Made by a program: the position numbers and the translations under genes
Source: Candidatus Danuiimicrobium aquiferis
GTDB lineage: Bacteria > Omnitrophota > Omnitrophia > Omnitrophales > Danuiimicrobiaceae
Direction of reading: 5' to 3'
Assembly (NCBI GenBank): GCA_001804285.1
Contig: MHFR01000068.1
Coordinates: 34,383-98,382, forward strand
Length of the DNA stretch: 64,000 bases
Notes under the pieces: model-generated
Database searches by the model: none
What the model was told of the DNA's origin: nothing
The model's input: only the letters and a program-made list of their open reading frames with translations
Shown: piece after piece, positions 19,601 to 41,136 of the stretch
How the letters are laid out: each line of letters begins with the position of its first letter
How positions within the stretch are numbered: the first letter of the stretch is position 1

Positions 19601-19606
19601 ATTTTT

Positions 19607-25301: not shown

Positions 25302-26292
25302 AATCACCAAATGGGTTTTTTGGGTGTTGTTCCTAACAAGCATCACGATCGGTGTGGTGATCTGGTCTTTGACGGTTGGCTCTTCCGGGATTCCCGCAGG
25401 GAAAGTTTTCACCGTTTTATTCCGGGGGACGGCCGGGCCCGAATATGACATTATTTTTAATATTCGTTTGCCGCGGATCATTTTAGGATTTGCGATTGGC
25501 GGCGCATTGAGTCTTGCGGGAATCCTTTTACAGGGAATGTTCCGGAATCCGTTGGTGGAACCGTACACGTTGGGAATTTCGGGCGGGGCCGGGCTTGGTG
25601 TTTCATTGAATATTCTTTTGGGTTTCTATCAAATAGGTGTTTTGACTTTGCCTTTTTCCGGCTTTTTAGGAGCGATTGTTGTCCTGGCGATCGTCTATGT
25701 TTTGAGTTTGCGAAGAGGATCCTCGCAGCTTCAGGGTTTGCTTCTGACAGGGGTGATGATGAGCTTCGTTTGTTCGTCCGTCATGATGTTAATCATGGCG
25801 ATTTCGCGGACAGAAGATCTTCACGGGATCATTTTCTGGGTGATGGGTTCCTTGGAAGAATCGAACTGGTTGATGATTAAAATCACGCTGATTGTATCGG
25901 TCTTCTTTTTGGTGATAGCTCATTTTTTTTGTCTCGACCTGAACGCCTTGTCTTTGGGGGAAGAAGAGGCGCAGCATCTTGGTATTCATGTTGAGAGGAC
26001 GAAACGCCTCCTTTTTATTATGACGTCGCTCTTGACGGGATTTTGTGTTTCCGTCGCGGGAATTATCGGATTTGTGGGCCTCGTAGTGCCGCATTTCATC
26101 CGGGTATTTATCGGAAACGATCACCGAGTATCGCTTGTCGCTGCATTTTTAGCCGGCGGTGCTTTTTTGATTTTTTGCGACACATTGGCAAGAACGATGA
26201 TTGCTCCGCTTGAATTACCGGTGGGTGTGATTACCGGAATCATCGGCGGCGGCCTTTTTATTTATATGTTAGCGAAACGCGGGAAACGGTAA
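25291..26292 (+). CDS. FecCD-family ABC permease (BtuC-like)
   Basis: Multi-TM protein with RLPRIILGFAIGGALSLAGILLQ and the C-terminal GxIGFVGLVVPH motif. The start was chosen at ATG 25291 (a further upstream ATG at 25246 is possible). Confidence 0.75.
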   Translation: MNNKITKWVFWVLFLTSITIGVVIWSLTVGSSGIPAGKVFTVLFRGTAGPEYDIIFNIRLPRIILGFAIGGALSLAGILLQGMFRNPLVEPYTLGISGGAGLGVSLNILLGFYQIGVLTLPFSGFLGAIVVLAIVYVLSLRRGSSQLQGLLLTGVMMSFVCSSVMMLIMAISRTEDLHGIIFWVMGSLEESNWLMIKITLIVSVFFLVIAHFFCLDLNALSLGEEEAQHLGIHVERTKRLLFIMTSLLTGFCVSVAGIIGFVGLVVPHFIRVFIGNDHRVSLVAAFLAGGAFLIFCDTLARTMIAPLELPVGVITGIIGGGLFIYMLAKRGKR

Positions 26293-26299
26293 GGGAATC

Positions 26300-27079
26300 A
26301 TGGTGCTGACGATCAATCATTTAACGTGCGGGTATGGCCGGAAAATTGTGCTTGATGATATTCATTTTTCTATTCAGAAGGGCGAATTCCTGGGAATTAT
26401 TGGGCCGAATGGCTCGGGAAAAACGACACTTCTACGATCGTTGACGAGAGTGGTTCAGCCGGTAAAAGGGGAAATTCTTTTTGAAGGGGAAGCGGTCGGG
26501 GCGATCCAACCGAAGCAGCTTGCTAAAAAAATCGCCGTGGCCTCGCAATCTTTATTTGAACCTCATATGCTTGTCGAGGATTTTGTCCTTTTAGGGAGAA
26601 TCCCGCATTATCAGAGTTTTCAATTATTAGAAACGAAAAAGGATTTTGAGGTTGCGGAAAGAGTGATGCGGTTAGCCGGCGTGAGCGATCTTCGAAATGC
26701 TTTTATGGACGAGATCAGCTCTGGAGAGAGGCAGTTAGTGGTGATTGCCCGCGCTCTCGCGCAGGAACCCAGCCTGCTTCTATTGGATGAGCCGACAGCG
26801 CATTTGGATATTACGCATCAGGTTCAAATCATGGATTTAATCAAGCGATTGAATCAAACGCTGGGCCTGACCGTGATTGTCGTTTTGCACGACCTTAATT
26901 TAGCAAGTGAGTATTGCCGCCGGCTTCTTTTAATTAAGAGCGGCCGGGTTCATAAACTCGGTGAGCCCCGGGACGTATTGAACGCTCAGACCATTGAAGA
27001 AGTTTATCGAACACGGGTGCATGTAGAAAAAAATCCGCTTTCTTCTAAACCCTATATATTGTTGACGAGCGAAGAATAA
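26300..27079 (+). CDS. ABC transporter ATP-binding protein (BtuD/FecE-like)
   Basis: Walker A GPNGSGKTT, signature SGGERQ, and Walker B LLLLDEP. Confidence 0.8.
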   Translation: MVLTINHLTCGYGRKIVLDDIHFSIQKGEFLGIIGPNGSGKTTLLRSLTRVVQPVKGEILFEGEAVGAIQPKQLAKKIAVASQSLFEPHMLVEDFVLLGRIPHYQSFQLLETKKDFEVAERVMRLAGVSDLRNAFMDEISSGERQLVVIARALAQEPSLLLLDEPTAHLDITHQVQIMDLIKRLNQTLGLTVIVVLHDLNLASEYCRRLLLIKSGRVHKLGEPRDVLNAQTIEEVYRTRVHVEKNPLSSKPYILLTSEE

Positions 27080-27124
27080 AATTGGGGTACCTATTATAGC
27101 GTTCTGAAGGTGACTATCGCCCTC

Positions 27125-27200
27125 ACTCTTCCGCCAAACAGCGCGTCGGATCCGCCTCTGGCGGAAACCCTCTCCCAGAGGGAGAGGGCAGGGGTGAGGG
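27125..27200 (+). repeat. Partial repeat-family fragment plus a perfect 9-bp hairpin
   Basis: tcggatccgcctctggcgga is identical to the internal segment of the element at 24323-24432. It is followed by ccctctccc-aga-gggagaggg. Confidence 0.45.
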
Positions 27201-27294
27201 TGATTTGTTAGCCCTGATTTCTCATCGTTAATAAGAAATTCCGCTCGTAAGAGTTGCGGTGCAAAGATGTTTGCGTCTTTGCGTCGCAGGGCTT

Positions 27295-27395
27295 ATCTTT
27301 TGCGCCCTGATTTAATAAGGGCGCAAAACTTTGGGCGTAACTTATTGCGCCCAAAGCGACTTTCTCGTCGATTCACAAAATCGATGAGAAAGTCG
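27295..27395 (+). promoter_or_regulatory. Cluster of mutually exclusive overlapping hairpins (attenuator-like) in a 550-bp intergenic leader
   Basis: gcgccc-tgatttaataa-gggcgc, gggcgcaa...ttgcgccc and tttgggcg...cgcccaaa share halves. Then a 13-bp stem ctttctcgtcgat/atcgatgagaaag. Confidence 0.35.
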
Positions 27396-27564
27396 GGTTA
27401 GTTAGTTCAAAATACTCATATAGATACATAGTTGTTTGTGGCTTTTTCGTCCATGGATTAAAATATGCCCTCACTATTGCAATTCCTGGTTTCAGCGGGT
27501 AAACTTTGGATTGTAGAGCGAAATCGAGAGAAGATTCTTTAACGAAAGTTAAGAATCTTTATTT

Positions 27565-27605
27565 TTTGAACGTTGATTGAAATTGTTGATAATCGTTGAT
27601 AAAAA
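27565..27605 (+). promoter_or_regulatory. Three direct repeats of (G)TTGAT(AA) at ~10-11-bp spacing upstream of the HTH gene / secretion operon
   Basis: acgTTGATtgaaatTGTTGATAAtcGTTGATAAaaacg, 30-70 nt upstream of the start at 27632. Confidence 0.35.
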
Positions 27606-27631
27606 CGCAGTAACAACCTTACTTCGCTGAT

Positions 27632-27841
27632 ATGATCAAAGACGAAATTCTGACCCTCAAACAAGTCGCGATATTTTTAAAAGTAAGCCCTCTGACGATT
27701 CACCGTCTTACCAAAAAAGGAATCCTTCCCGGCGTGAAGATCGGAAATCAATGGCGCTATTGGCGTAAAAATATCGAGGTGATTTTGAAAAATCCGGAAA
27801 CATTGTCACAAGCCATGATGAAAAAACGAAAGGTTGCATGA
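27632..27841 (+). CDS. Excisionase/AlpA-family helix-turn-helix DNA-binding protein
   Basis: 69 aa. LTLKQVAIFLKVSPLTIHRLTKKGILPGVKIGNQWRY is an HTH_17-type motif. Confidence 0.65.
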   Translation: MIKDEILTLKQVAIFLKVSPLTIHRLTKKGILPGVKIGNQWRYWRKNIEVILKNPETLSQAMMKKRKVA

Positions 27842-28311
27842 TAATGAGGAATTGGGAATCGCTTTTAGGTACTCTTATTTATATTCTCGCCGCACTCATT
27901 GCGGCGCTTGCTGTGGTACAGCTTGTTGTGACGCCATTCAGGTTAGGCAGCCAAAAGTCAAGCGGCCATGCGTTAAGTTCGATTGATTCATTCCGGATGA
28001 CGAAATTGAAACCGTTGGAAGCATATAAGAGTGATTTTGCGAGCCATGCTCTTTTTTCAAAACTCAGAGTTGCCGTTGTTCCGAAAGGTCCGACGATAGA
28101 TGATTTACTCAAGCAATATTCGATTAACGGAATTATTCAAGGAGCGGTTCCGGATGTTTTGATTATGAATAATAGAACAAGACAAACGCAGATTTTGAGC
28201 GCCGGGCAAAGTTTCGATCAATTTAAAATCATACAAATTAAACAGCATTCCATCATGGTTGAATATCAAGGGCAACAAAAAGAACTATTTATTGCGGAGG
28301 GGCAACAATGA
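27838..28311 (+). CDS. Membrane-anchored protein, possibly a PilP/GspC-like secretin-associated component
   Basis: N-terminal TM helix LIYILAALIAALAVVQLVV. It lies immediately upstream of, and overlaps, the secretin gene. No strong motif was found. Confidence 0.4.
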   Translation: MIMRNWESLLGTLIYILAALIAALAVVQLVVTPFRLGSQKSSGHALSSIDSFRMTKLKPLEAYKSDFASHALFSKLRVAVVPKGPTIDDLLKQYSINGIIQGAVPDVLIMNNRTRQTQILSAGQSFDQFKIIQIKQHSIMVEYQGQQKELFIAEGQQ

Positions 28312-30548
28312 AAACGGTAACGGAAAAAATAACTGCAATGCTGATTGCTTTCGTATTGATTTGGATGGCGCCGGTTCCTCTCTACGCACAGGGATTTGAT
28401 CCGCCGCAACAGAACTCGAACAGTGATCAATCCGGTAGTAATGCGGATCCCACAACTCAATTTGGTAGTAATGTGGATCCCACAGCGTTGCAGATGGATG
28501 TTTCCATACCGGATGCAACCGGAATGGGTCAACTGCCGGTGATGAATATGGAGCCCGGTTCGGACAGCCAGCGGATTACACTGGAACTCAAAGGAGTGGA
28601 TGTCCTGGATGTCCTTAAAATCCTTTCAAGCCGGTCCGGTCTTAATATTGTTGCCGGGAAGAATGTGCGGGGGCAGGTAACCATTTATCTGAAAGATGTT
28701 TTGATTCAGGAAGCCCTTGATACGATCGTTGCCGCCCTTGGCCTTGCCTATGAGGAGGAACAGGGAATTATCAAGGTCATGACGGATAAGGAATATGAAG
28801 CTATGTACGGCCGGATTTTCCGTGACCGTCGCGTGACAAAGACATTTAAGATTAAATATGCCGAACCGACGACGATTCAACAGGTGCTTCAGCAGCTCAA
28901 AGGGCCGCAGGGGAAAATTATTCTGGATGAACGGACGAATACATTAATTATACAGGACCTTCCTGAAATTATTGATGAAATTGAAAACGCGATTTCCGAG
29001 TTAGATCAGAAATTAGTGACAAAAGTATACAAACTGCAATATGCGCCGGTTGAGGATTTGGAAGAAAAGCTTTCGACTTTTTTAACGCCGGAAACGGGTG
29101 TCATTAAAATTGATCCGCGCACGAATATGGTGACGGTGACAGATCGCGAGGAAAAGATCCAGATGATCGATGAAATCGTAAAAGCGTTTGATAAAAGACC
29201 CAAGCAGGTATTAATCGAAGCACAAATAATCGAAGTTCAGCTTTACGATGCGTACAGATTTGGAATCGATTGGGATTATGTGAGAAGCCAAATGGGACAG
29301 CTGAAGGATGTTAACATCCAGCCAGGGTATGGAGTTCCTGTTGTTCCGGGATCTACTGGAGGTGGAGGGACACTGACGTCAATTACTGTTGGAGAAACTG
29401 GGATGGCCGGGCTCAGTAATATGGTAATTCGTATTTTGCAGAACGTCGGCAAAACAAATACATTGGCATCTCCGCGTTTGTCCGTTCTCAATAATGAAGA
29501 AGCAAAATTGGCTGTAACGACGAAGGAACCATATATCGTGTCGGACACGACGTATGCGACTTCCGGGTCATCTTCAGTGCCTTATGTAGCAGAAAAACCG
29601 GAATTTGTGGATGTCGGAGTAGCGCTATCGGTTGTCCCGACCATTTCTGATGATAATACGATTATTTTGAAGATTAAACCTGAAGTGAGCAATACGAATG
29701 CTCCCGACTTTGAATACGATACAGCGGCAGGTACTGTGGATACGGCCATATCAAGATCTATTCCGGTTGTAGCTTCTCAAACACTTGAAACAACGGTTAT
29801 CGTTAAATCCGGTGAAACTATTATTCTTGGTGGATTGATTAATGATTCAGAATCTAAAACAAGGGAGAAAGTGCCTGTTTTGGGTGATATTCCGGTTATC
29901 GGGGCTTTGTTTAGAAAAACATCAGATACATTTACGAAAGATGAATTAGTTATTTTTCTTACGCCGCATATTATTTCTGGAGATGCTAGTTCCAGTGAGC
30001 AGGCGAAGTATCTTGATAATAACGGTCGCTTAATCAATTTTGATAAAGCGGGAGGTTATGACTTTGGGTTGGCCCAAAAACATTCACAAGGGGCGGCAAG
30101 GATTGATAACCGGCCGTATTGGAAAATCGATAAGCCAAAATGGCCGCAATATGCAATTCCACCGGATGTTTATACGCGATCAAAACCGTATGCGGATCGT
30201 ATGAATGAATTTGAAGGAGGAAAGGAAGGGAAAGTTATTCCGCCGAAGGAGACACTCATCGATGAATACCAGCAGCAAGTCGGGGCGCAGGTGTCTGCGA
30301 GTCTGGAAGCTGTTGAGGAAATTCAAAGTTTGGAAGGCAATATGGATTTGGCTTTGACCATCCGGAGAGACGGCGTGCTTGAAGAGGTTTCCTTTATCGA
30401 TGTCGGGCCGGTCAAAAAACGGGACGTGCGATACAAGATTTTGGATGCGATTAAAGGAGCCGGACAATTTCCGGCATTTCCGAAGGGGTTGGATTCGGCG
30501 AAAGAAACTTTGGATTTGAGGTTTGAGTTGGAGAGTGAAAAGATATAA
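28308..30548 (+). CDS. Secretin (GspD/PilQ family) with a ~190-aa C-terminal extension resembling a TonB_C domain
   Basis: Secretin N-domains (LELKGVDVLDVLKILSSRSGLNIVAG...) and the C-terminal secretin core VPVLGDIPVIGALFRKTSDTFTKDELVIFLTPHII. The extension ...LTIRRDGVLEEVSFIDVGPV...ILDAIKGAGQFPAFPKG...LDLRFELE has the TonB_C-like pattern. Confidence 0.8.
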   Translation: MKTVTEKITAMLIAFVLIWMAPVPLYAQGFDPPQQNSNSDQSGSNADPTTQFGSNVDPTALQMDVSIPDATGMGQLPVMNMEPGSDSQRITLELKGVDVLDVLKILSSRSGLNIVAGKNVRGQVTIYLKDVLIQEALDTIVAALGLAYEEEQGIIKVMTDKEYEAMYGRIFRDRRVTKTFKIKYAEPTTIQQVLQQLKGPQGKIILDERTNTLIIQDLPEIIDEIENAISELDQKLVTKVYKLQYAPVEDLEEKLSTFLTPETGVIKIDPRTNMVTVTDREEKIQMIDEIVKAFDKRPKQVLIEAQIIEVQLYDAYRFGIDWDYVRSQMGQLKDVNIQPGYGVPVVPGSTGGGGTLTSITVGETGMAGLSNMVIRILQNVGKTNTLASPRLSVLNNEEAKLAVTTKEPYIVSDTTYATSGSSSVPYVAEKPEFVDVGVALSVVPTISDDNTIILKIKPEVSNTNAPDFEYDTAAGTVDTAISRSIPVVASQTLETTVIVKSGETIILGGLINDSESKTREKVPVLGDIPVIGALFRKTSDTFTKDELVIFLTPHIISGDASSSEQAKYLDNNGRLINFDKAGGYDFGLAQKHSQGAARIDNRPYWKIDKPKWPQYAIPPDVYTRSKPYADRMNEFEGGKEGKVIPPKETLIDEYQQQVGAQVSASLEAVEEIQSLEGNMDLALTIRRDGVLEEVSFIDVGPVKKRDVRYKILDAIKGAGQFPAFPKGLDSAKETLDLRFELESEKI

Positions 30549-30603
30549 GGCGTATCTATTTAGCGTTTTGAAGTAATTATTTGTAAAAGGTTTTCAACTT
30601 TTT

Positions 30604-30801
30604 TGTCATTCCCGCGAAAGCGGGAATCCAGACGCCGCTTTGGGCTCCCCGGACTTGTCCGGGGGGGAATGGCGCCCGAAGGGCGAGCCGAGCAGGGAAA
30701 GAGAAAATTCCCAGCGAGGCCAGATGTTGAAAGGTGCCCCGGGCTTGCCCGGGGGGAAACCACAAGCCATGGATGCCCGCTTAAAACATGCGAGCATGAC
30801 A
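30604..30801 (+). repeat. Long (~200 bp) member of the MITE-like repeat family with extra GC-rich internal hairpins
   Basis: tgtcattcccgcgaaagcgggaatcc...ccccggacttgtccggggggg...ccccgggcttgcccgggggg...cccgcttaaaacatgcgagcatgaca. Confidence 0.65.
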
Positions 30802-30849
30802 CAAGTTGACGTATTTGCTACTTCAAAGCGCTAAAAAGATACGTGTAAG

Positions 30850-32052
30850 GTGTCAGGCATAAGGATCAATATGGAGATTAAAAATAAAAGCATTATTTCA
30901 CCGGCTAAAATTAAAATCATTAAGAAGCCGGCGATGCGGAATATCGAGTCAACGGAAACTCCGGATGCTGAAAAAAAACAACCGCGGGCCCGGTTCCAAT
31001 TTTCGTTTGCTCAAAAATCGGTTTCTGCTCAAACGATTTCTGATTTTTTTGATCAACTTTCCACATTGCTGGCATCCGGCATTTCTTTGCTCCGCGCGCT
31101 TGAATTTACACGCGGCGGAATCCGGAACGCGAAATTAAATGAAGCGATCGGCCACTTGATCGAAAAAATCAGTTCGGGTTCACAGCTTTCGGAGTCGCTC
31201 GCGGATTATCCGGAAATTTTTGACCGCGTGGTACTCGGAATGATCAAAGCCGCGGAAGCAAGCGGACGTTTGGAACAGTTGTGCGCCGAGCTTTCTAAGT
31301 CGTTTGCGGCAAGGGCGGAAATGAAGAACCGGATTATCCAGGCCCTTTCGTATCCCTTTCTGGTGGCCTCGGTCGGTGTGATCACTGTGTGTGTGTTGCT
31401 GGTTTTTGTGGTTCCGAAATTAACTACCGTTTTTGATTTATGGGAAACGAAACTTCCGCTCGTGACACGAATCCTTTTGGGAACGGCGAGTTTTATGAGC
31501 CACGGCGGAATTCTGGTTCCCGTTGCTTTGGGTGTGATCGGTTTTATTGTATATAACATGTTATCTCACGAAAGAAAGAAGCAAGTGATGCATGAAACCG
31601 TCGGCCATATGCCCTATATCAACCGGATTATATTTCTGACAGATTTTGTCCGCTTAACCCGGACATGGGGGATGTTGATCCGGAGCGGGGTTCCCTTGAT
31701 AGAGGCGATTCAATCGAGCAAGGAAGTTCTCTGGGATCCCAAAATGCGAAAGGATCTTGACGATGTTCGGGAAAAAACGATTCGTGGCACGTCGCTTCAA
31801 GAGTCGGTCAAGGAAGTGGCGTGGTTCCCGGAACTTGCGCATAATTTTCTTGCGGTCGGTGAAGAGACCAGCACGCTGGATGAATCATTCGAGAAAATCG
31901 CGAATTTTTATGAACGGGAACTGGATCGAAAAGTGAAAGTGATGGGGACGTATCTTGAGCCCATATTAATTTTGAGCATTGGATTGGTTGTCGGATTTTT
32001 GGTGATCGCATTGTTATTACCTATTTTTGAAATGAGCTTAGTTGTGAAATGA
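30850..32052 (+). CDS. Type II secretion / type IV pilus platform protein (GspF/PilC family)
   Basis: Two T2SF-type repeats (SGISLLRALEFT...; SGVPLIEAIQSS...) and three TM segments. An alternative start lies at 30871. Confidence 0.8.
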   Translation: MSGIRINMEIKNKSIISPAKIKIIKKPAMRNIESTETPDAEKKQPRARFQFSFAQKSVSAQTISDFFDQLSTLLASGISLLRALEFTRGGIRNAKLNEAIGHLIEKISSGSQLSESLADYPEIFDRVVLGMIKAAEASGRLEQLCAELSKSFAARAEMKNRIIQALSYPFLVASVGVITVCVLLVFVVPKLTTVFDLWETKLPLVTRILLGTASFMSHGGILVPVALGVIGFIVYNMLSHERKKQVMHETVGHMPYINRIIFLTDFVRLTRTWGMLIRSGVPLIEAIQSSKEVLWDPKMRKDLDDVREKTIRGTSLQESVKEVAWFPELAHNFLAVGEETSTLDESFEKIANFYERELDRKVKVMGTYLEPILILSIGLVVGFLVIALLLPIFEMSLVVK

Positions 32053-32846
32053 GAAGGATGACCCCCATGATGCTTGCGCTGATTTTAACTTATGTTTTAC
32101 AAATTCCATTTAATGGAGCTGAAGTGGCCAAAGACTGGGCAAATCTGAAAGGAGACCATTTTGTCATTTATCACCAGGCGGCTAACAGTGCGTTTTCCCG
32201 GGAGACCTTGCGGCGCGCCGAACAGTATTACGACAAAATTGCGAAAGAATTGGGTTATTCAAGACGCGATAATTTTTGGCTTTGGGAAAACCGGTGCGCG
32301 ATTTATTTATTTGAAAGCAAAGAAGCGTTTTCCAAGGTGACTCAACAAGCGGTTTGGTCGAGCGGATTTGCGATTCCCGATAAACGGGCAATTATTTCTT
32401 ATGAGGGAGCTACCGATTTTTTGGAATCTATTTTGTCGCATGAACTTGCGCATTTAATTTTCCGTGATTTTGTCGGGCTTGGGAACCAGACGATCCCGCT
32501 TTGGATGGATGAAGGCGTTGCGATGTCTCAGGAAGAATCCCGGCGCCCGTTTTTTGATCATTTGGTCAAGCAGATGATTTCCCAGAACAAATGGGTAGCG
32601 ATTCCGGATCTGACGCAAATCCAGTCACTTCAGGGAATTACCGTTAATGAAGCGGCCGTGTTTTATGCGGAATCGCAAAGTTTAGCGCGATATCTTTTAG
32701 CGGCTGATCATCCCGAAAGGTTTATACAAATGTGCCGTGATTTGAGGGACGGGAAATCAATCGATCAATCATTGAGCAAAAACTACCCCAAAAAATTTCC
32801 GTCTGTTTCAGATCTCGAACAAAATTGGGTTGAAAACAGTGGCTAA
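32049..32846 (+). CDS. Secreted zinc metalloprotease (HExxH, peptidase-MA-like) inside the secretion cluster
   Basis: Signal peptide, then the LSHELAHLIF HExxH motif and a downstream WMDEG (third ligand Glu). Confidence 0.6.
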   Translation: MRRMTPMMLALILTYVLQIPFNGAEVAKDWANLKGDHFVIYHQAANSAFSRETLRRAEQYYDKIAKELGYSRRDNFWLWENRCAIYLFESKEAFSKVTQQAVWSSGFAIPDKRAIISYEGATDFLESILSHELAHLIFRDFVGLGNQTIPLWMDEGVAMSQEESRRPFFDHLVKQMISQNKWVAIPDLTQIQSLQGITVNEAAVFYAESQSLARYLLAADHPERFIQMCRDLRDGKSIDQSLSKNYPKKFPSVSDLEQNWVENSG

Positions 32847-33345
32847 GCTACGCGGTTTTACCTTAATTGAATTGCTGGTGGTTTTGGCTCTGGTGGTGAT
32901 TGTGACCGGGCTCGTTACGGTGCGGTTTGTCGGCAGTGTTCAGGAACGAAGTTTGGAGCAGTATGTGCGCGAGATGTCGGCGTATTTACGCTTTCTTCAA
33001 TTCAAAGCGATTGAAGATGGCAATGTCCTTAAAATATTTTTTAATGAAGAGACCAAAGAGGTTGAAAGCATGAAGCTCGAGAAAGAGAGCCAGAGGGAAG
33101 ACGGGAGGAAAAACAAGAAAAAGGAATTCGTTCCCATGAAGACACCGTTTTCTCAGAAGGCAAATGGGAATAAGGATTTTGGAATCCGGCTCAAAAGCGG
33201 AGATGAAATTTATTTTTTTCCTGACGGCAGCGTGACGAAAAATACCGTTATTATTTCCGATCAGGTTGATGAGCGCGCAACAATCGAAATTAAAAACCGG
33301 TTGGGTTTATTCAAAGTCAATTTCAATGAAAAAACGCCGTATTAG
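32830..33345 (+). CDS. Type IV pilin-like pseudopilin (prepilin N-terminus)
   Basis: KLRGFTLIELLVVLALVVIV is the class III signal peptide (G|FTLIE with Glu at +5). Confidence 0.75.
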   Translation: MKTVAKLRGFTLIELLVVLALVVIVTGLVTVRFVGSVQERSLEQYVREMSAYLRFLQFKAIEDGNVLKIFFNEETKEVESMKLEKESQREDGRKNKKKEFVPMKTPFSQKANGNKDFGIRLKSGDEIYFFPDGSVTKNTVIISDQVDERATIEIKNRLGLFKVNFNEKTPY

Positions 33346-33841
33346 AGGGGCTTTACTCTTTGAAACGTTTATAGCGCTGATGATCCTTTCAATAGGTATC
33401 GTGAGTGTTTTGCGGATTTTTGGAGAATCGCTATTTGTCGGGCGCCAAAACGAAGAACGAAGAGAACTGAAAACAGGGATCGATAAGGCATTGTTTGAGT
33501 GGTTTGCATACCCGCAGGGCGTTTCGCTCTCGGAAGAAGGGTATCTGATGATGCCCCTTGAAACCGAAAGGAAAGGTTCCGATTTGTATTTTGAGATAAA
33601 AGGAGAAAAGATGATTCCGATCGGGCAGGAGCCAAAAGACGAGCAGGCGGAAAACGGTGCGCAAACGCAGCCGGTGAGTCAATTCGGTATTACGCCAAAT
33701 TTAAACATGAATGAATATATCAAAGTCAAAGGCAATATCATGCGCGGCCGGCACACGCCTATTTACGATATGGATACAGTCATTTTAAAAATAAAGAAAC
33801 CGGAGAATATGCAGCAGCAAACGAACCGAGGTTTTTCGTGA
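33326..33841 (+). CDS. Minor pseudopilin (GspI-like)
   Basis: MKKRRIRGALLFETFIALMILSIGIV has the cleavage motif G|ALLFE (Glu at +5). It overlaps the upstream gene by 20 nt. Confidence 0.6.
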   Translation: MKKRRIRGALLFETFIALMILSIGIVSVLRIFGESLFVGRQNEERRELKTGIDKALFEWFAYPQGVSLSEEGYLMMPLETERKGSDLYFEIKGEKMIPIGQEPKDEQAENGAQTQPVSQFGITPNLNMNEYIKVKGNIMRGRHTPIYDMDTVILKIKKPENMQQQTNRGFS

Positions 33842-34485
33842 GCGATAAGAGAAATTTGACTGAAACTGCTTCCAATTATGCGGGTTTTACCTTGGTCGAA
33901 CTCTTGGTTGTTCTGGCCATTATTTCGGTGACATTGACCGTCCTTTACACGAGTTTTCGCACGGGGTTGCTCGCCTATCAAAAGATGGAAGAAAATTTGA
34001 TGGACCGGCGCGAAGCGGAAATTTTCATGATGCAATTCGAGCATGAATTAAAAAATGCAATCCCTTACTATAATAAAGATTCCGAGCAATTCTTTGTCGG
34101 AGATGAACGTGATTTAAAATTTCCCGCGAAACTTGTTCGCTATTCGCAGAAAGGAATGGAGGAAGGTCTGTTTATGGTTGAATATCAGGTCAGAGGTCAA
34201 TCGTTAGTCCGGAAAGAAAAAAAGATGGTCAAAAAATTTAAAGACCGTTCTTCATCGCGGGAAGTGAAAGAAACGTTGTTTAATAAATTAAAAAAATGCC
34301 GGTTTGAATATTTGTTTGTTGACGATTCGGATAAATTGTTTTGGGACAAGGAATGGACGAATAGTCCGTATCTGGGAGTTCCGAGAGGTGTTCGATTGAT
34401 CATGAGGGGGGATTCGTTCGGAATCCAAGAAAAAAGTTATGAAATTTTAATTCCACACGGGATTTTATTACAAAAAAATGCGTAA
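33838..34485 (+). CDS. Minor pseudopilin (GspJ/PilW-like)
   Basis: GTG start. AGFTLVELLVVLAIISV prepilin motif. Confidence 0.65.
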   Translation: MSDKRNLTETASNYAGFTLVELLVVLAIISVTLTVLYTSFRTGLLAYQKMEENLMDRREAEIFMMQFEHELKNAIPYYNKDSEQFFVGDERDLKFPAKLVRYSQKGMEEGLFMVEYQVRGQSLVRKEKKMVKKFKDRSSSREVKETLFNKLKKCRFEYLFVDDSDKLFWDKEWTNSPYLGVPRGVRLIMRGDSFGIQEKSYEILIPHGILLQKNA

Positions 34486-35593
34486 ATATCAATATCATCA
34501 AGGAAGTGTATTGATTTTATTTTTATGGGTGATGATCCTCTTGTCGCTTTTTGCGGTAAGTATTGCGCTCAGGACGCGCCTTGCTACCAAAATTGAAGGT
34601 TACGAAATGAACCAGTTTGAGTTAAGTTACGATTATTTGACAGCTGTTAATTTAGCACGGTATTTTATCGATTCGGATCAGGATTCTAATGTTGATCATC
34701 CGGGAGACGTTTGGTGCGGCGCACCGCGCGGGTTCAAGGAAATGGAGTTTTCGAAACGGTTTGGGCTGGAAATTACCGACGAAGAAAGCAAAATTAATAT
34801 CAATATTGCCTCGGAACCGTTTTTAATTAATTTCTTTGATTTACTCAAAACGAAAAAATATTCGCTTAAAACAAATTCTAAAAAAATAGCTGGAAGTATC
34901 ATTGCGTGGCGGGGTGGTTCTGTTGCGCAAGGGCCTTCTACTCTGGGGACAAAGCAAAAAATGGGGCCGTTTGAGAGTCTTGATGAGCTTTTATTGATTC
35001 AATCGATTGATTCCGAAGATGCTGAAAAATTAAAGCCTTTTCTGACGGTTTATGGAATGGCCTATGGCGCAATGAAAGTCAATCTCAATACCGTTCATCG
35101 GTATGTTTTAGAAGCTTTGATTTCATCCCTGAGCGGAGATGCCTCCGATAAAAAGAGGCTCTTTGAAAGTATTGAGGAGTATCGGACATTAACCGCGAAT
35201 TCGCAAAACACGGCGGCTCAAGATGAAAATGCCACAGAAAATTCGACTTCAAATATAAAACAATTTTTTAACCGGGACGATATGGCAAATATAGCTCAAT
35301 TTATGGTGAAGGTAGGGTTGCCGGTTCAGCTGCAGGGGCCCTATGGCCAGATGGGAAGTGTGCCGAATTTAATCCGGCAGCTTTTTTACTATGTGAAAGT
35401 GAACTCTGATTATTTTCATGTCGAAGTCCGTTCAAGACTTCCGGGAAAAGAGTCGTTTGTATTAGAAACTGTTTTGGGGGCCAGAGTGATTCCGAGATTT
35501 CGCGTGACTCCGATAGGTGTTTCGTTTGGCCAGACAGGAAAGATGGTTGCGATTCCTCTTGAAATTCTTTCATGGCAAGAAAGGGTGTTCTGA
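34478..35593 (+). CDS. GspK-like minor pseudopilin (type II secretion system protein K family)
   Basis: N-terminal GSVLILFLWVMILLSL hydrophobic segment, ~370 aa, and the KININIASE..L motif typical of GspK. Confidence 0.6.
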   Translation: MRKYQYHQGSVLILFLWVMILLSLFAVSIALRTRLATKIEGYEMNQFELSYDYLTAVNLARYFIDSDQDSNVDHPGDVWCGAPRGFKEMEFSKRFGLEITDEESKININIASEPFLINFFDLLKTKKYSLKTNSKKIAGSIIAWRGGSVAQGPSTLGTKQKMGPFESLDELLLIQSIDSEDAEKLKPFLTVYGMAYGAMKVNLNTVHRYVLEALISSLSGDASDKKRLFESIEEYRTLTANSQNTAAQDENATENSTSNIKQFFNRDDMANIAQFMVKVGLPVQLQGPYGQMGSVPNLIRQLFYYVKVNSDYFHVEVRSRLPGKESFVLETVLGARVIPRFRVTPIGVSFGQTGKMVAIPLEILSWQERVF

Positions 35594-36999
35594 TGTTGAT
35601 AGGGAAAAAAGGTTCAATCTTCGGTATCAGCTATTTTCATGGCGATGAGCTTCATGTTGTGTTCATTGACCATGCCCATGGGCAGACCCGGGTGATCGGA
35701 AAGGAAACTATTTCCGTGCGGAGCAGTGAGAATCTTTCCGCCGCCGATCATACCCTGGTTGAATTCAGAAAACGGATTTTGTCTTATCGGGCGCGGATAC
35801 AGTCATGGGTGCATCTTGTGTTTAGAAATGTTTCGATCGTCAAAGTTTTTCCGGTGCCGCAAGTCCCTGAGACGGAATTGGATCAAGCGATTACCAACAG
35901 GGTCCATGCCGAAATTCCGTATCTTTCCGAAGAAGTAATTTTGCATCAGGTGCTTCAGGAAGCGCAACAAGGAAAAGAATCACAGGTGCTTCTGTTCGGG
36001 GTTTCTAAAGGCGTTCTGGGAGAACAATTAAAAAGGCTTGAAGCGTTTGGAGTTATTCCCGATCGAGTGGTCCTTTCAACAGAAGCTCTGGGGTGGTTAT
36101 ATCGCACCAAAGTTTTTCCGGAAGAAAATCCGAAAGATCTGGTATTAATGGTTTATTTTTTTAATGGACATGTCGAATTGCTCTTTTTTGAAGATCATGT
36201 GTTACTTCAGAGCAGGTGGCTGTCGCAAGAAGCTAATCAGGGCGTTGGCATGCAAGAATCTATCCGAGCGACCATCGCGGCCTTTCAGCGGGAGTGGCAC
36301 CGGAAACCGGAACAAATCTATGTGGCCGGATTGAGTTCATCAAATGCCGAGGCGATGAGCAGTGACCCGTCCTATTCTGTTAAAGTGATGATGGAAGATT
36401 CAAATCAAGAGGGGCATCCTCCGGCGCTTTTTAATGCGGTGATAGAATCTATTTCGTCGGATGAAATTTTTGATTATACGCTCTCTTCCTATAAAGAAGT
36501 TCGTGATCAGAAAAGTCGTGTTGTTGGGCGGTCAAAGATAGCTTCTTCTGTTTTTTGTCTAACGGCGGCTCTTCTATTATTGGCACTTGTTCAGGTTGGG
36601 ATTGTGTTCGGGCAAATCAGCTGGTTCCAATTTCGAACCGGAACATTCTCAGCTGACGTTAAAGAAATTAAAAAAATGCATCAGGAAGCAGTCGCGATCG
36701 TGGATTTTTATGAAAAAAAAGCACTTCCGATCGAGACGGTCGCTTCACTCCGCGAAGCGATTTCAACGGAGATGCTCTTGCGTGAAGTCGAGTATGACTT
36801 TGACAAGCGGACGATTTCGGTTCGGGGGATTGCGCCCGATCAGGCTTTGGTTGATCAATTTATTGCCAAATTGGAACAGGGTGGTTTTTATGAAAAGCTG
36901 AAATTAGAACGTATTCAGGCGGAGCAAAGTGATCAGGCGAAAACGGTTTTTGATTTTTCTTTTGAAGGGCATATAAAGGTAACCAGTGAATCAAATTAA
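35593..36999 (+). CDS. GspL-like assembly protein (cytoplasmic PilM/actin-like domain, TM, periplasmic PilN-like domain)
   Basis: ~470 aa. N-terminal domain, a single TM at ~aa 315-340 (IASSVFCLTAALLLLALVQVGIVF), and a periplasmic coiled region. TGATG start overlap with the upstream gene. Confidence 0.55.
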   Translation: MLIGKKGSIFGISYFHGDELHVVFIDHAHGQTRVIGKETISVRSSENLSAADHTLVEFRKRILSYRARIQSWVHLVFRNVSIVKVFPVPQVPETELDQAITNRVHAEIPYLSEEVILHQVLQEAQQGKESQVLLFGVSKGVLGEQLKRLEAFGVIPDRVVLSTEALGWLYRTKVFPEENPKDLVLMVYFFNGHVELLFFEDHVLLQSRWLSQEANQGVGMQESIRATIAAFQREWHRKPEQIYVAGLSSSNAEAMSSDPSYSVKVMMEDSNQEGHPPALFNAVIESISSDEIFDYTLSSYKEVRDQKSRVVGRSKIASSVFCLTAALLLLALVQVGIVFGQISWFQFRTGTFSADVKEIKKMHQEAVAIVDFYEKKALPIETVASLREAISTEMLLREVEYDFDKRTISVRGIAPDQALVDQFIAKLEQGGFYEKLKLERIQAEQSDQAKTVFDFSFEGHIKVTSESN

Positions 37000-37492
37000 A
37001 ATCTTTTTTTCGAATCAAAAAAACTTATGGATAAGCGCAGGCGTATGCCTCGCGCTCGCTATGCTGTTGATCTATTGCCGGGATGGACTATCGAAAATAT
37101 TGCGAGATAAAGAGAAAGAATATCAAACGGATGTTGCGTTATCGAAAGAAAGTAAAATGCGCCGGCAAATTTATGAAACGGTTTTGAATACCGCAAAACT
37201 TCCCGAGAGGAAGCAGGTCAGTTCAAATACGTGGGTCCAAGAAACGCAGGTACTTGTAACCGGTCAGAAATTATCGCTTCAAGAGTTGAAGCCGGATGAG
37301 CGAGGATCCGGTAAGGGCGAAAGTAAACCGAGCCTGTATTTGGTGGTTGAAGGGAATATGGCGGATCTTTTAAGCTTTTTTTATCGGATATCCGAAAATC
37401 AGAATTTTGTTTATGTTAAGAATTTTATGGTGACGCGGCCCAGCGATAATTCTGATGGGGTGAGTGCGGAAGTTACCCTTTCCCAAATGTAA
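36986..37492 (+). CDS. GspM/PilO-like inner-membrane assembly protein
   Basis: 168 aa with an N-terminal TM (LWISAGVCLALAMLLIY). It sits between the GspL-like and GspE genes. Confidence 0.5.
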   Translation: MNQIKIFFSNQKNLWISAGVCLALAMLLIYCRDGLSKILRDKEKEYQTDVALSKESKMRRQIYETVLNTAKLPERKQVSSNTWVQETQVLVTGQKLSLQELKPDERGSGKGESKPSLYLVVEGNMADLLSFFYRISENQNFVYVKNFMVTRPSDNSDGVSAEVTLSQM

Positions 37493-37514
37493 AAACGATG
37501 AAAGGTGCATTTGC

Positions 37515-39158
37515 ATGATTAGAAAAAAGAAGACTTATTTTATCGGCGAAGAATTAATCCGGAAAAATCTTGTGACGCTTGAGCAGATCGGACAGGCGCT
37601 TGAAGTTCAGGAACAAACCGGAGAATTTTTAGGAAGGATTTTGGTCCGTTTCGGTTTTATTCCCGAATCAAAACTAATTGAGGTTTTAGCCGACCAATTT
37701 GAATTACGGCTTGTCAGGCCCGACGAAATGGAGATTTCGAAAGAGGTGCTCCAAAGAGTGCCGCCAAAAGTTGCTCATCACTATCATATTTTCCCGGTTG
37801 AAATAAAAGGGAATCATTTATTGATTGCGATGAATGAACCACCTGAGTTTGACGTCATTCAGGAACTAAATGCGATTTTGGGGATTGAAATTCAAGTATT
37901 GTTAGCTGAACGTTCACGGATTGATGAAGCGATTCAGAAACATTATGGAATCGGAGCGTCTATCGTCGATCAATTGACGAAAACGAAAAAGAAACAATCT
38001 AAAGCGCAGGTTGAAGCCCAGATGGGTTCGACTGAAGAAATGGAAGCAACTGCCGGCGAATCTTCGGTGCGTGAACTGGTCAACCAGTTACTCATGGATG
38101 CCCAGAAAAAACGGGCGAGTGATATTCATATTGAACCTTTTTCAGACCGTTTGAGTGTCCGGTATCGCATCGACGGTATCTTGCAGGAAGCAAAGGTACC
38201 GGACGAAATCCGGCAATTCCATTCAAGCATTATTTCGCGCATTAAAATTATGGCCAATTTAGATATCTCAGAGCGCCGTCTTCCGCAAGACGGCCGGATT
38301 AAAATCAGCATTCAAAATGAAGAATTGGATTTGCGCGTGTCGCTGCTTCCCACTGCTTATGGCGAGTCGCTTGTGATTCGAATTCTGTCGCCGGCAAGGT
38401 TATTGAGATTGGATGGCATCGGGCTGGCACAAGATTATCTTGCTCGATTTCGCCAAATTTTGCAGAAACCGTACGGCGTTATTTTGCTGACCGGTCCCAC
38501 GGGAAGCGGCAAAACAACAACTCTGTATGGTGCGCTCAGTTCCTTGAATGATGTGGGGCGGAAAATTATTACGGTAGAGGATCCGGTTGAATATCAGCTT
38601 GATGGAATTATTCAGATGCAGGTGCATCCGAAAATTGATCTGACATTTTCAATCGGGTTGCGTCACATGTTGCGGCATGACCCGGATGTGCTGATGGTCG
38701 GAGAAATCCGGGATGCCGAAACGGCGGAAATTGCGATCCGTTCGTCACTGACCGGCCATTTGGTGTTTTCCACTTTGCATACCAATGATGCGGTGGGTGC
38801 AATTGCTCGGCTTCTTGATCTCGGAATGCAACCGTATCTGGTATCTTCCAGCCTTGAATGTGTGATTGCCCAGCGATTAGTCCGGTTGATTTGTGAGAAA
38901 TGTAAGACGAAAAAAGACGGAGAATATATCGGGCAAGGATGCGAACAATGCAACGATACCGGATTCTATGGGCGGACTGCCATTCATGAATTTCTCGTGT
39001 TGGATGATGAGTTGAGGGACATGGTTGCAAGGGGAATGAGCGCCCTTGAAATCAGGGAGGCTTCTGTGAAAAAGGGGATGCGGCTCCTCAAAGATGATGG
39101 CCTCTCGAAAGTTCGTGCCGGGTTAACCACTACAGCTGAAGTATTGCGGGTAACATGA
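37515..39158 (+). CDS. Type II secretion / type IV pilus assembly ATPase (GspE/PilB family)
   Basis: N-terminal GSPII domain, Walker A LLTGPTGSGKTTTL, Asp/His boxes, and a tetracysteine motif CEKCKT...CEQCNDTGFYGR. Confidence 0.85.
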   Translation: MIRKKKTYFIGEELIRKNLVTLEQIGQALEVQEQTGEFLGRILVRFGFIPESKLIEVLADQFELRLVRPDEMEISKEVLQRVPPKVAHHYHIFPVEIKGNHLLIAMNEPPEFDVIQELNAILGIEIQVLLAERSRIDEAIQKHYGIGASIVDQLTKTKKKQSKAQVEAQMGSTEEMEATAGESSVRELVNQLLMDAQKKRASDIHIEPFSDRLSVRYRIDGILQEAKVPDEIRQFHSSIISRIKIMANLDISERRLPQDGRIKISIQNEELDLRVSLLPTAYGESLVIRILSPARLLRLDGIGLAQDYLARFRQILQKPYGVILLTGPTGSGKTTTLYGALSSLNDVGRKIITVEDPVEYQLDGIIQMQVHPKIDLTFSIGLRHMLRHDPDVLMVGEIRDAETAEIAIRSSLTGHLVFSTLHTNDAVGAIARLLDLGMQPYLVSSSLECVIAQRLVRLICEKCKTKKDGEYIGQGCEQCNDTGFYGRTAIHEFLVLDDELRDMVARGMSALEIREASVKKGMRLLKDDGLSKVRAGLTTTAEVLRVT

Positions 39159-39312
39159 GGTCTCGAAAATCCGAATTTTGTTTCCTATGAAATATTTAAA
39201 ACAGCTTAAAAGAGCTTGATTTGCGATTGAAGGTTCGTTAATCTATGCCCGCCTTACCGTTGGATGAGGCTCAATTTTTTTAATTTAAAGATTAACTGAA
39301 AGTGAAAATTTT

Positions 39313-41136
39313 ATGCAGGTGGTTACTATGAAAAATGAACGAACTAATCATGCAGAGCTTTTAAATTGGGTCAAAGCGATGGCTGAACTTTGCACGCCTG
39401 ACAGAATCGTTTGGTGCGATGGTTCGGAATCCGAAAAAAAACGTTTGGAACAGGAAGCGGTGGGAACGGGCGAGCTTGTCGAACTCAATCAGGAGAAAAT
39501 GCCGGGGTGTTTCTATCATCGTACGGCAGTGAATGACGTCGCGCGGACGGAACATTTAACTTATATTTGCACGTCGAAACAAGAAGACGCGGGACCTACT
39601 AATAATTGGATGGCGCCCGAAGAAGCATACGAAAAAGCGAGGCAGCTTTTTAAAGGTGCGATGAAGGGCCGAACCATGTATGTCATTCCGTTTAGCATGG
39701 GCCCGATTGGTTCCGTATTCAGCAAAATCGGTGTTGAGCTGACGGATAGTATTTATGTGGTTCTCAATATGCGCATCATGACGCGAATGGGAACGGCGGT
39801 TTTAGAGGCGCTCGGTTCCAAAGGCGAATTTACAAAATGTCTTCACAGCAAAGCTGATCTTGATATCTATCGCCGTCTCATTCTCCATTTTCCGGAAGAT
39901 AATACGATTTGGAGTGTCGGTTCCGGTTACGGCGGAAATGTGCTTCTCGGGAAAAAATGTTTGGCGCTTAGAATTGCAAGTTATCTCGGTATGAAAGAAG
40001 GCTGGATGGCTGAGCATATGCTTATTCTCGGGATTGAAAAGCCGAACGGAGAGATTCAATATGTCGCCGGTGCATTTCCGAGTGCTTGCGGGAAAACCAA
40101 TTTGGCGATGTTGGTTCCGCCTGAAGGGTTGAAACATAAAGGATACCGGATTTGGACGGTTGGCGATGATATTGCGTGGATGCGGATCGGAAAAGACGGA
40201 AGGTTGTGGGCGATTAATCCCGAAAACGGATTTTTCGGCGTATTGCCCGGAACAGGGCCCGCGACTAATCCGCTTGCGATGGAAACAATCAAGGAAAATA
40301 CGATTTTTACCAATGTCGCGTTGTGTCCGGACGGGACGGTTTGGTGGGAAGGAAAAGATGATAACCCGCCGGCTGAAGCGATTGATTGGAAAGGCGATAA
40401 ATGGCAGCCGGGGATGAAAGATAAGGACGGAAAACCCGTGTTAGCAGCGCATCCCAATAGCCGTTTTACAGCGCCGATATCGCAATGTCCCAGTTTTAAT
40501 CCAAAGATACATGAATCGACAGAAGGGGTTCCCATCTCTGCCATTATTTTTGGTGGCCGAAGAGCCGGACTCGTTCCGCTCGTTTACGAAAGTTTTAATT
40601 GGCGGCATGGTGTTTTTGTCGGTTCCCAAATTGCATCAGAGAGAACTGCGGCACAATTCGGAAAGCAGGGGGAAGTTCGGCTGGATCCGATGGCGATGCT
40701 TCCTTTTTGTGGATACAATATGGGCGATTATTTTAAACATTGGCTTGAAATGGGGAAACGGATGAAGTCTCAGCCAAAAGTTTTCCGTGTCAATTGGTTT
40801 CGTCGTGATCAAAACGGCAAGTTCCTCTGGCCGGGGTTCGGCGATAATTTAAGGGTTCTTGAATGGATTTTGGACCGTTCGAACGGGAAAGTGGATGCGG
40901 TAGAAACACCGATCGGCTATATTCCAAAGCCGAATAGTTTGGATTTGACGGGACTGAATTTAAATCCTGAAACGCTCAAAGAATTATTTGATATCGATCC
41001 GGGCGAATGGATGCCGACTTTTCTCGCGGAAGAAGAATTTTTGGCTCAGTTTGGTTCTAAACTTCCTCAAGAGCTTAGAGAAGACTTAGAAGATCGGGAA
41101 AAACGGTTTCAAGCGGTTTTGAAAAACAAACATTAA
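39313..41136 (+). CDS. pckG: Phosphoenolpyruvate carboxykinase (GTP)
   Basis: FPSACGKTNLAM kinase-1a motif, GDDIAWM, and overall GTP-PEPCK architecture (~600 aa). Confidence 0.85.
   Translation: MQVVTMKNERTNHAELLNWVKAMAELCTPDRIVWCDGSESEKKRLEQEAVGTGELVELNQEKMPGCFYHRTAVNDVARTEHLTYICTSKQEDAGPTNNWMAPEEAYEKARQLFKGAMKGRTMYVIPFSMGPIGSVFSKIGVELTDSIYVVLNMRIMTRMGTAVLEALGSKGEFTKCLHSKADLDIYRRLILHFPEDNTIWSVGSGYGGNVLLGKKCLALRIASYLGMKEGWMAEHMLILGIEKPNGEIQYVAGAFPSACGKTNLAMLVPPEGLKHKGYRIWTVGDDIAWMRIGKDGRLWAINPENGFFGVLPGTGPATNPLAMETIKENTIFTNVALCPDGTVWWEGKDDNPPAEAIDWKGDKWQPGMKDKDGKPVLAAHPNSRFTAPISQCPSFNPKIHESTEGVPISAIIFGGRRAGLVPLVYESFNWRHGVFVGSQIASERTAAQFGKQGEVRLDPMAMLPFCGYNMGDYFKHWLEMGKRMKSQPKVFRVNWFRRDQNGKFLWPGFGDNLRVLEWILDRSNGKVDAVETPIGYIPKPNSLDLTGLNLNPETLKELFDIDPGEWMPTFLAEEEFLAQFGSKLPQELREDLEDREKRFQAVLKNKH

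Follow-up and report, generated by a model that had tools for sequence, protein, structure and literature searches.

Type II secretion systems (T2SSs) have been defined almost entirely from Proteobacteria. We analysed a 64,000-nucleotide stretch from Candidatus Danuiimicrobium aquiferis, a member of the Omnitrophota (contig MHFR01000068.1, positions 34,383 to 98,382; this whole stretch is referred to hereafter as the window), which holds a T2SS-type gene cluster at positions 27632–39158 with a gene for a predicted exported zinc protease (PROT) in its middle. In common with canonical Gsp systems (Klebsiella Pul, Vibrio Eps and Pseudomonas Xcp), the cluster encodes homologues of D, E, F and H–K and probable homologues of C, L and M on one strand, has standard prepilin leaders and a GspL-like platform protein, and is devoid of a retraction ATPase. 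It departs from these systems in that the operon lacks gspG, gspO and gspN, that gspE stands at the 3′ end and carries an MshE-type cyclic di-GMP (c-di-GMP) motif, that the secretin has a long C-terminal extension, that a small helix-turn-helix (HTH) gene heads the operon, and that the gene for a predicted periplasmic gluzincin lies between gspF and the pseudopilin genes. By gene content the cluster works like a Gsp T2SS; strict membership of the class fails on GspG and GspO within the window.

A hydrolase gene in or beside a T2SS operon is familiar from the E. coli T2SS-beta operon (SslE/YghJ, an M60-like zinc metalloprotease cargo), from Klebsiella (pulA) and from the P. aeruginosa Hxc system (lapA). 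The gene described here resembles these in encoding a signal-peptide-bearing hydrolase (like SslE, a zinc metalloprotease); whereas such cargo genes lie at operon edges, show no conservation between phyla and are either large or restricted to a lineage, it is small, internal and translationally coupled, shows conservation at the level of GspF and has an equivalent in the division and cell wall (dcw) operon. Wall accessories dedicated to particular machines (GspA/GspB-ExeAB, BfpH, VirB1, EtgA, FlgJ) are lytic transglycosylases, muramidases or peptidoglycan-binding ATPase complexes. They are periplasmic accessories encoded in envelope-machine operons and needed to pass peptidoglycan, and a like role is proposed here, by analogy only, for a protein that is instead a gluzincin of the HExxH+E type. 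Neither of these two nearest precedents agrees with PROT in protein family or in gene position. BepA, YcaL and LoiP, periplasmic zinc protease-chaperones with assisting or policing roles in outer-membrane machine assembly, often with TPR repeats, are likewise soluble or peripheral, but belong to family M48 (one homologue of our protease, at the locus termed L003, adjoins an M48 gene).

Within the Omnitrophota, T2SS-like loci with gspD/E/F and class III signal-peptide genes near giant genes have been reported (West-Roberts et al, bioRxiv 10.1101/2023.11.21.568195; bioRxiv 10.64898/2026.06.07.730766); the accessible portions of these reports mention rcpC and a peptidyl-prolyl isomerase, and hold no mention of an MA-family protease or of a dcw counterpart. 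The main survey of the phylum (PMC10066038) does not discuss T2SSs, and a literature search returned no description of the protease family in T2SS or dcw operons, the term Peptidase_MA_2 appearing in a single paper on an unrelated subject. The secretion system itself is ordinary in outline; the conserved protease and its alternative dcw location are undescribed.

The zinc protease gene as a constant part of the pseudopilus module

PROT is a 265-aa Peptidase_MA_2 gluzincin (32049..32846, + strand; 60.3 bits against a Pfam cut-off of 32.4 bits) whose start codon overlaps the stop codon of gspF (ATGA), such that the two genes are translationally coupled. We compared its surroundings across loci chosen by similarity to the protease, drawn from the best 80 species-representative genomes (147 weaker matches lie beyond these), which are included in a set of 82 non-duplicate loci. 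Two arrangements recur around gspF: class A, with the window order C-D-F-PROT-H-I-J-K-L-M-E, and class B, with the order E-F-PROT-G-x-J-K-L-M. The class A order was found via the protease in three relatives (L007, L008 and L009) and independently, through a GspF-alignment metagenome scan, in two more (L088 and L090), each with the protease right after gspF. All six class A clusters, window included, thus contain the protease; the metagenome scan comprised 6 loci only, so that as a search for orthologous clusters devoid of the protease it rests on few cases. Distant E-F clusters that do lack it (L091, L092) probably belong to other phyla. The position between gspF and the pseudopilins reaches metagenome-assembled genomes (MAGs) labelled Lentisphaerota and Verrucomicrobiota. 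This pattern agrees with the part of the original prediction (a note made from the window sequence before this analysis) that set the gene apart from housekeeping genes: it is a conserved part of the operon and does not have the look of a housekeeping gene. Neither outcome named there as fatal to the protease claim, want of a cleavable signal peptide or absence from orthologous clusters, was observed.

Across the wider set, gspF lies upstream of the protease in 54 of the 82 loci, and gspG directly downstream of it in about 50 (class B); median gaps are ~54 bp from F to PROT and ~35 bp from PROT to G. The protease gene always directly precedes the pseudopilin block, meeting G in class B and H in class A. 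In one class B sublineage (L036, L049, L051, L052, L056 and L066), one to three response-regulator receiver genes lie between gspF and the protease gene. Where gspF is parted from it in this way, the protease stays beside gspG, and we therefore count the gene as a fixed part of the pseudopilus module. We also considered whether the two classes might be complementary halves of one machine; this was not adopted, since each class has E, F, J, K, L and M genes of its own.

The protease changes about as slowly as GspF and more slowly than the pseudopilins. For the class A loci that the GspF scan recovered, the window proteins are matched at an identity of 58–65% for E, 40–56% for F, 41–50% for PROT and 43–49% for D, falling to 30–47% for H–K (32–45% for J/K) and 23–38% for L/M. 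Among 37 class B loci, mean pairwise identity is 0.59 for E, 0.49 for F, 0.49 for PROT, 0.41 for K and 0.71 for G, and the distances between proteases rise with those between the E, F, G and K proteins (Spearman 0.56–0.64), about as closely as G and K track each other (0.56). By these measures the protease behaves as a core component and not as a fast-changing secreted effector, with the reservation that the loci of the 80-genome set had been picked for similarity to the protease.

Two loci depart from the common layout around the protease. At L020, a single MAG carries two tandem copies after gspF (9217–9972 and 10001–10786), the upstream one highly divergent and devoid of the conserved N-terminal motif. 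At L001 (Omnitrophica RIFCSPLOWO2_12_FULL_50_11), the protease gene is immediately followed by an inserted DUF559/MTES_1575 gene (10915–11280), and gspE is followed (17770–20831) by a gene whose product exceeds 1267 aa, combines Peptidase_S8, FG-GAP and beta-propeller domains and is a plausible real cargo.

A second home in the dcw operon

Of 28 loci that have no gspF, 22 (from as many Omnitrophota species) share the order mraY-murD-ftsW-murG-PROT-murC-murB-ddl-ftsQ-ftsA (L027, L035, L038, L040–L042, L045, L046, L059, L060, L065, L069, L072, L073, L075, L076, L078–L080 and L084–L086). We confirmed this context with Pfam on L038, in which the protease gene (10001–10783) overlaps its neighbors through start and stop codons; to our knowledge, no gene has been described between murG and murC. 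A neighbor-joining tree, computed without support values, resolves the proteases into three clades that match the three contexts (class A, class B and dcw). Conserved across all three clades are 38 residues, including His131, Glu132, His135, Glu155 and a Trp103-Ser104-x-Gly106 strand beside the active site, and the class B and dcw clades are separated by only three fixed differences, all of them conservative. No assembly contributes more than one locus to the best 80, which fits one protease copy per genome whose place varies by lineage.

The protease is predicted to be an exported minimal gluzincin

The motif HELAH (residues 131–135) supplies two zinc ligands (His131 and His135) and the catalytic Glu132, with Glu155 assigned as third ligand from alignment to the M1 aminopeptidase motif; all four residues are invariant in 24 homologue sequences. 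PF13485 is carried by 42 of 42 first-round homologues, and the family (844 clusters at E <= 1e-10) is almost exclusively from Omnitrophota MAGs, the best existing annotation being “peptidase MA family metallohydrolase”. The window protein begins MRR-MTPMMLALILTYVLQIPF-NGA↓EV, that is, a charged start, an h-region and a candidate cleavage site (arrow). By the same heuristic reading, n-, h- and c-regions recur in 73 of 81 family members: a positively charged N-terminus, a hydrophobic stretch, and small residues a little ahead of a conserved Trp, with no lipobox. These features indicate a protein that would be Sec-exported and cleaved by signal peptidase I, and the description of the gene product as a signal-peptide-bearing zinc protease in the original prediction is borne out to that extent. 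The N-terminal segment is the only hydrophobic one; the remainder is a soluble, confidently folded domain, with no transmembrane (TM) segment in the mature part.

A structure prediction had been suggested alongside that description, and the AlphaFold2 model (mean predicted local distance difference test, pLDDT, 89.4) consists of a single thermolysin-like domain. Foldseek relates this model at probability 1.0 to M9, M1 and M30 catalytic domains (E down to 6.8e-6). In the PDB, the model comes closest to clostridial and Vibrio M9 collagenases (peptidase domains), to the catalytic domains of M1 aminopeptidases and to lugdulysin, with query-normalized TM-scores of ~0.53–0.63 and sequence identities of only 10–18%. 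Searching PDB sequences with the family profile gave only marginal matches to M1 aminopeptidase active sites, the top match (Crov588) being a repeat artefact. The predicted fold is that of a minimal gluzincin, sharing with Peptidase_MA_2 (PF13485), M9 and M1 the HExxH motif and downstream Glu, a score above the gathering threshold for the first of these, and the modelled architecture. It differs from M9 and M1 enzymes in being a single domain of ~240 mature residues, with no activator or N-/C-terminal accessory domains and no GxMEN motif. Absence of this M1 exopeptidase motif suggests that the enzyme would be an endopeptidase.

Possible roles of the protease

We favor a reading in which PROT is a periplasmic accessory endopeptidase of envelope-spanning machines that aids their insertion or turnover, and is not itself a cargo; we put the probability of this at roughly one half. 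The protease would be exported by Sec, lose its signal peptide and then act in the periplasm as a soluble HExxH+E endopeptidase. Its gene is set inside an envelope-machine or wall-synthesis operon (T2SS in 54 loci, dcw in 22), and because the enzyme is essentially unchanged between T2SS and dcw contexts, the substrate would most likely be common to both machines. Preferred candidates would be the stem peptides of peptidoglycan, or those portions of bitopic or pilin-like machine subunits that lie in the periplasm, and their cleavage may let a machine pass through the wall or be turned over. Given the gluzincin fold and the absence of any wall-hydrolase match, the claim is that the protein would work like a wall-remodelling factor, not that it is a member of that class.

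Several points weigh against this interpretation. No wall-hydrolase family or fold (lytic transglycosylase, M23/M15, NlpC/P60 or amidase) occurs among the Pfam, NCBIfam and PDB matches of the protease; known wall peptidases have other folds (M15, M23, M74, NlpC/P60), and the folds closest to PROT are those of protein- and peptide-degrading enzymes, many of them secreted. A signal peptide with a hydrolase fold is also typical of a T2SS substrate. The signal-peptide calls are heuristic, in that n-, h- and c-regions were read from sequence, and the three-clade tree bears no support values. A few family members lie in other contexts; for example, at L003 (9238–11633) a class-B-like homologue lies away from the secretion cluster, between a CBM_11-like gene and the M48 peptidase gene, downstream of a gene for a 2067-aa GH94 enzyme.

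The original prediction saw in the placement of the gene the mark of a dedicated cargo, which would be exported to the periplasm and then pass out through the secretin, for instance to act against surface proteins of prey or host. This would parallel SslE/YghJ in the E. coli T2SS-beta operon or PulA beside pul. The gene does sit inside a T2SS operon, its Sec signal peptide is conserved across the family (again by heuristic calls), and the nearest folds are those of secreted collagenases and lugdulysin. Also in its favor, Omnitrophota are thought to be host-dependent or predatory, and there are reports of T2SS-like loci in the vicinity of giant surface proteins (PMC10066038; bioRxiv 10.1101/2023.11.21.568195). 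Known T2SS cargo sets, on the other hand, vary widely even between species, whereas the F-PROT-pseudopilin position with overlapping codons is kept in more than 50 species; the protease evolves as slowly as GspF and slower than the pseudopilins, and a near-identical clade occupies the dcw operon between murG and murC, where a T2SS cargo has no reason to be. Conservation like that of GspF, co-inheritance across dozens of species and the dcw clade tell against placement as a sign of cargo, and we consider this role unlikely. Were it correct, PROT would stand out among T2SS substrates for its age and conservation, in bacteria whose lifestyle is suspected to be predatory or host-dependent.

The dcw clade bears equally on two readings that place the substrate among the pseudopilins. 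T2SSs have no retraction ATPase, leaving a disassembly step that otherwise seems to be missing; by cleaving the globular domains of pseudopilins, or stalled pseudopili, a periplasmic protease could supply it. The invariable position just before the pseudopilin block, the retention of G as neighbor when F is separated, and the absence of a PilT-type ATPase from the cluster are in keeping with such turnover, which leaves unexplained a dcw clade with unchanged active site and substrate strand, and which we regard as improbable. Substitution for the prepilin peptidase (GspO/PilD), with PROT removing the pseudopilin leaders, finds some encouragement in the proximity of the protease and pseudopilin genes and in the apparent lack of an A24 peptidase in the window or within 10 kb of 86 related loci (a weak point, in that the probe was a single, distant PilD sequence). 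This would be topologically implausible. Class III leaders are the substrate of polytopic aspartyl proteases that act on the cytoplasmic side, and the leaders here are canonical (G↓F/A...E5), whereas PROT has a cleavable Sec signal and no TM segment in its mature part, which would place its active site in the periplasm; the dcw clade is again unaccounted for, and we think the idea very improbable indeed. The “pseudopilin-processing enzyme” of the original prediction accordingly divides in two: leader processing is implausible, and action on pseudopilins from the periplasmic side is improbable but fits a gene that always directly precedes their block. As a further alternative, PROT might be a general housekeeping protease of the periplasm that hitch-hikes in highly expressed envelope operons. 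The occurrence of at most one locus per assembly among the best 80 fits one copy per genome, its location differs by lineage (T2SS, dcw, occasionally elsewhere), and there is no clade-specific divergence; yet adjacency to gspF/gspG is kept across deep divergence and local rearrangements, and all three recurrent contexts are envelope-spanning machines and not random operons, making this explanation rather unlikely.

A bolder version of the accessory-endopeptidase reading, which we view as doubtful, is that PROT is a core periplasmic component common to the T2SS pseudopilus module and the divisome/wall-synthesis operon of Omnitrophota and the Planctomycetes–Verrucomicrobia–Chlamydiae (PVC) group. 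It would then be either the first clan-MA peptidase to act on peptidoglycan stem peptides, or a protease that dismantles pseudopili or bitopic platform proteins (“retraction”). What is plain from the loci is that in a whole uncultured phylum, and apparently in some of its PVC relatives too, the pseudopilus module includes one additional, fixed enzyme gene, whose alternative place in the genome is the cell-division and wall-synthesis operon. Should its product cleave wall material or machine subunits, type IV filament machines would gain a new class of accessory factor, and there would be a way into two questions: how a pseudopilus gets through the wall, and how it is taken apart where there is no retraction ATPase. 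Small and soluble, the protease should be feasible to express and assay without culturing the organism.

Layout of the secretion cluster

Open reading frame (ORF) listing and profile searches place 12 ORFs on the + strand between 27632 and 39158, in the order HTH-C-D-F-PROT-H-I-J-K-L-M-E. This agrees with the gene order given in the original prediction (HTH regulator, C-like protein, secretin, F, HExxH protease, four pseudopilins, PilM+PilN fusion, M and E). Its description of the genes as all tightly overlapping needs amending: adjacent genes mostly overlap by 4–20 bases, except that a 301-bp gap (30549–30849) parts the secretin gene from gspF. The cluster encodes a T2SS-type (type IV filament) machine of Omnitrophota, with the H-I-J-K pseudopilins forming the pseudopilus tip.

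At the head of the cluster lies a gene for a 69-aa DNA-binding protein of the HTH_17 type (27632..27841, +; MerR/excisionase-like; Pfam E = 4.8e-10), which is probably the cluster regulator; a homologue with 56% identity occupies the same position in the relative L090, and a plausible sigma-70-like promoter match (27566–27593) precedes the gene. A bitopic protein of 157 aa (27838..28311, +) resembles GspC/PilP, with weak profile matches (NF041616 GspC 3.3e-4, TIGR01713 2.7e-3), an N-terminal TM segment and homologues in L007, L008, L009, L088 and L090; its gene precedes that of the 746-aa secretin (28308..30548, +; GspD/PilQ family), which matches PF00263 (9.5e-46), Secretin_N (1.3e-28) and TIGR02517 GspD (3.2e-81; 273.6 bits, under the 351-bit equivalog cut-off). 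Past the secretin domain this protein extends by ~190 aa (29980–30548, residues ~557–746). Two independent but weak matches liken the extension to domains of the TonB C-terminal type: Pfam TonB_2 aligns along its entire model (0.016), and NCBIfam AgmX/PglI C-terminal matches at 0.022. A domain of this kind would be unusual on a secretin.

The inner-membrane platform protein GspF (30850..32052, +) contains two T2SSF repeats (Pfam 1.6e-52) and scores 277 bits on TIGR02120 GspF (2.9e-82), under the 424-bit equivalog cut-off. Following the protease gene are those of the pseudopilins: a GspH-like minor pseudopilin of 171 aa (32830..33345, +; TIGR01708 5.6e-14, N_methyl 5.1e-6) with the leader ...KLRG↓FTLIELLVV; a GspI-like pseudopilin (33326..33841, +; the mechanical ORF start is 33266) with the leader MKKRRIRG↓ALLFE; a GspJ-like pseudopilin (33838..34485, +; N_methyl 3.3e-8, T2SSJ 2.8e-5, prepilin motif) with the leader ...NYAG↓FTLVELLVV; and a GspK-like pseudopilin of 371 aa (34478..35593, +; NF037980 GspK 1.2e-20, T2SSK_1st 1.4e-5). 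The GspI-like protein has no significant hidden Markov model match in Pfam or NCBIfam, and is assigned on its leader with the Glu5 motif, its place between H and J, and its class A homologues.

Next come a 475-aa GspL-like platform protein (35572..36999, +) that combines a PilM-like cytoplasmic with a PilN-like periplasmic domain (PilN 5.9e-6, TIGR01175 pilM 3.8e-5, and weakly TIGR01709 gspL 5.3e-4; its homologue in L005 shows PilM_2 and PilN), and a GspM/PilO-like bitopic protein (36986..37492, +) recognized by a weak PilO match (2.2e-3), by position and by homologues in relatives. Profile matches are weak for GspL, GspM and GspC alike, and architecture and position fit the assignments. The GspE-type assembly ATPase (37464..39158, +; T2SSE 8.6e-132, MshEN 1.8e-17) reaches 564 bits on TIGR02533 GspE (cut-off 630) against 547 bits for PilB. 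As a group, D, E and F do about as well on type IVa pilus models, and none of the three reaches its NCBIfam equivalog cut-off. Likely start codons are those at 30871 (ATG) for gspF, 33326 for the I-like gene and 37515 for gspE.

Read from the last of these starts, the N-terminus of GspE (37515–37700) includes a c-di-GMP-binding motif of the MshE type (NF053729; 51.4 bits, cut-off 38 bits), and the ATPase is probably c-di-GMP responsive. A HAMP-GGDEF protein is encoded near the end of the window (62408–63775, − strand), and the class B GspE of L005 has a C-terminal PilZ domain instead of the MshE-type motif. Taken together, these observations suggest that secretion may be under c-di-GMP control.

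Major pseudopilin and prepilin peptidase

The original prediction reported neither GspG nor a prepilin peptidase in the cluster, and we now extend this to the whole 64 kb. A six-frame search of the window for the class III leader motif recovered only the H- and J-like genes and no gspG, and tblastn with two Omnitrophota GspG proteins gave no match in the 64-kb window. We also asked whether the GspH-like protein could be a disguised GspG; this was rejected, since GspG models match only its N-terminal 44 residues (the N-terminal helix) and the Omnitrophota GspG proteins do not match it. For the prepilin peptidase, tblastn with P. aeruginosa PilD against the window and 86 related loci returned nothing at E <= 1, a weak negative given that the query was one distant sequence. 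With this same weak probe and a check of ORFs with seven TM segments, no A24 peptidase was found in the window or at a distance of up to 10 kb from the 86 loci, the only 7-TM ORFs of suitable size in the window being a UbiA prenyltransferase and an Rce1-like protease.

Either gene might have been expected immediately outside the cluster as part of the same operon. The flanks are unrelated (an iron-type ABC transporter upstream, phosphoenolpyruvate carboxykinase, PEPCK, downstream), so gspG and gspO are not simply located just outside the operon or cut off by the window edge. Among the five class A loci with upstream sequence, gspG occurs only in L007, ahead of gspC, and is absent from the window, L009, L088 and L090. 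Absence of gspG is therefore normal for class A, and the operon in this lineage usually has no gspG, and has no prepilin peptidase gene. All four pseudopilin leaders are standard class III (G↓F/A...E5), and the presence of four ordinary prepilin leaders requires that GspG and a prepilin peptidase come from elsewhere; we infer that GspG and PilD/GspO are encoded at other places in the genome.

Insert, repeats and neighboring genes

The 301-bp gap between the secretin gene and gspF (30549..30849) is a palindromic insert that folds at −135.5 kcal/mol (z = −7.1 relative to shuffled sequence), with ends that pair as terminal inverted repeats in the RNA fold. It is missing in relatives, in which the D and F genes abut. 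Its core, GTCATTCCCGCGAAAGCGGGAATCCAG, is a dispersed palindrome rich in GC that recurs at 13665–13691 and 17654–17680 (chance expectation 0 copies); another related copy aligns within 19560–19850. We read the element as a probable insertion resembling a miniature inverted-repeat transposable element (MITE). The copy at 17654 lies inside an M16 peptidase ORF, and another falls around the predicted start (19657) of a TonB-dependent receptor ORF, a start that may be miscalled.

Over some 550 bp ahead of the HTH gene (27080–27631) there are dense inverted repeats, including a terminator-like hairpin of 16 pairs (27254–27289) and other palindromes. An Rfam scan of 26000–40000 at E <= 0.1, taking in this upstream region, gave no match, and the intergenic elements in that interval are not known RNAs. 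Promoter and terminator scans yielded counts at or below the shuffle expectation, and were uninformative save for the plausible promoter before the HTH gene.

In three of the class A relatives, an aroA-mreB-mreC-mreD-pbp2-rodA block directly precedes the cluster (L009, 7–5955; L088, 387–7047; L090, 6–6773). In the window the equivalent aroA-mreBCD-pbp2-rodA block is found at 47163–53916, ~8 kb downstream of gspE, and this difference in placement indicates that the cluster has moved relative to the elongasome genes.

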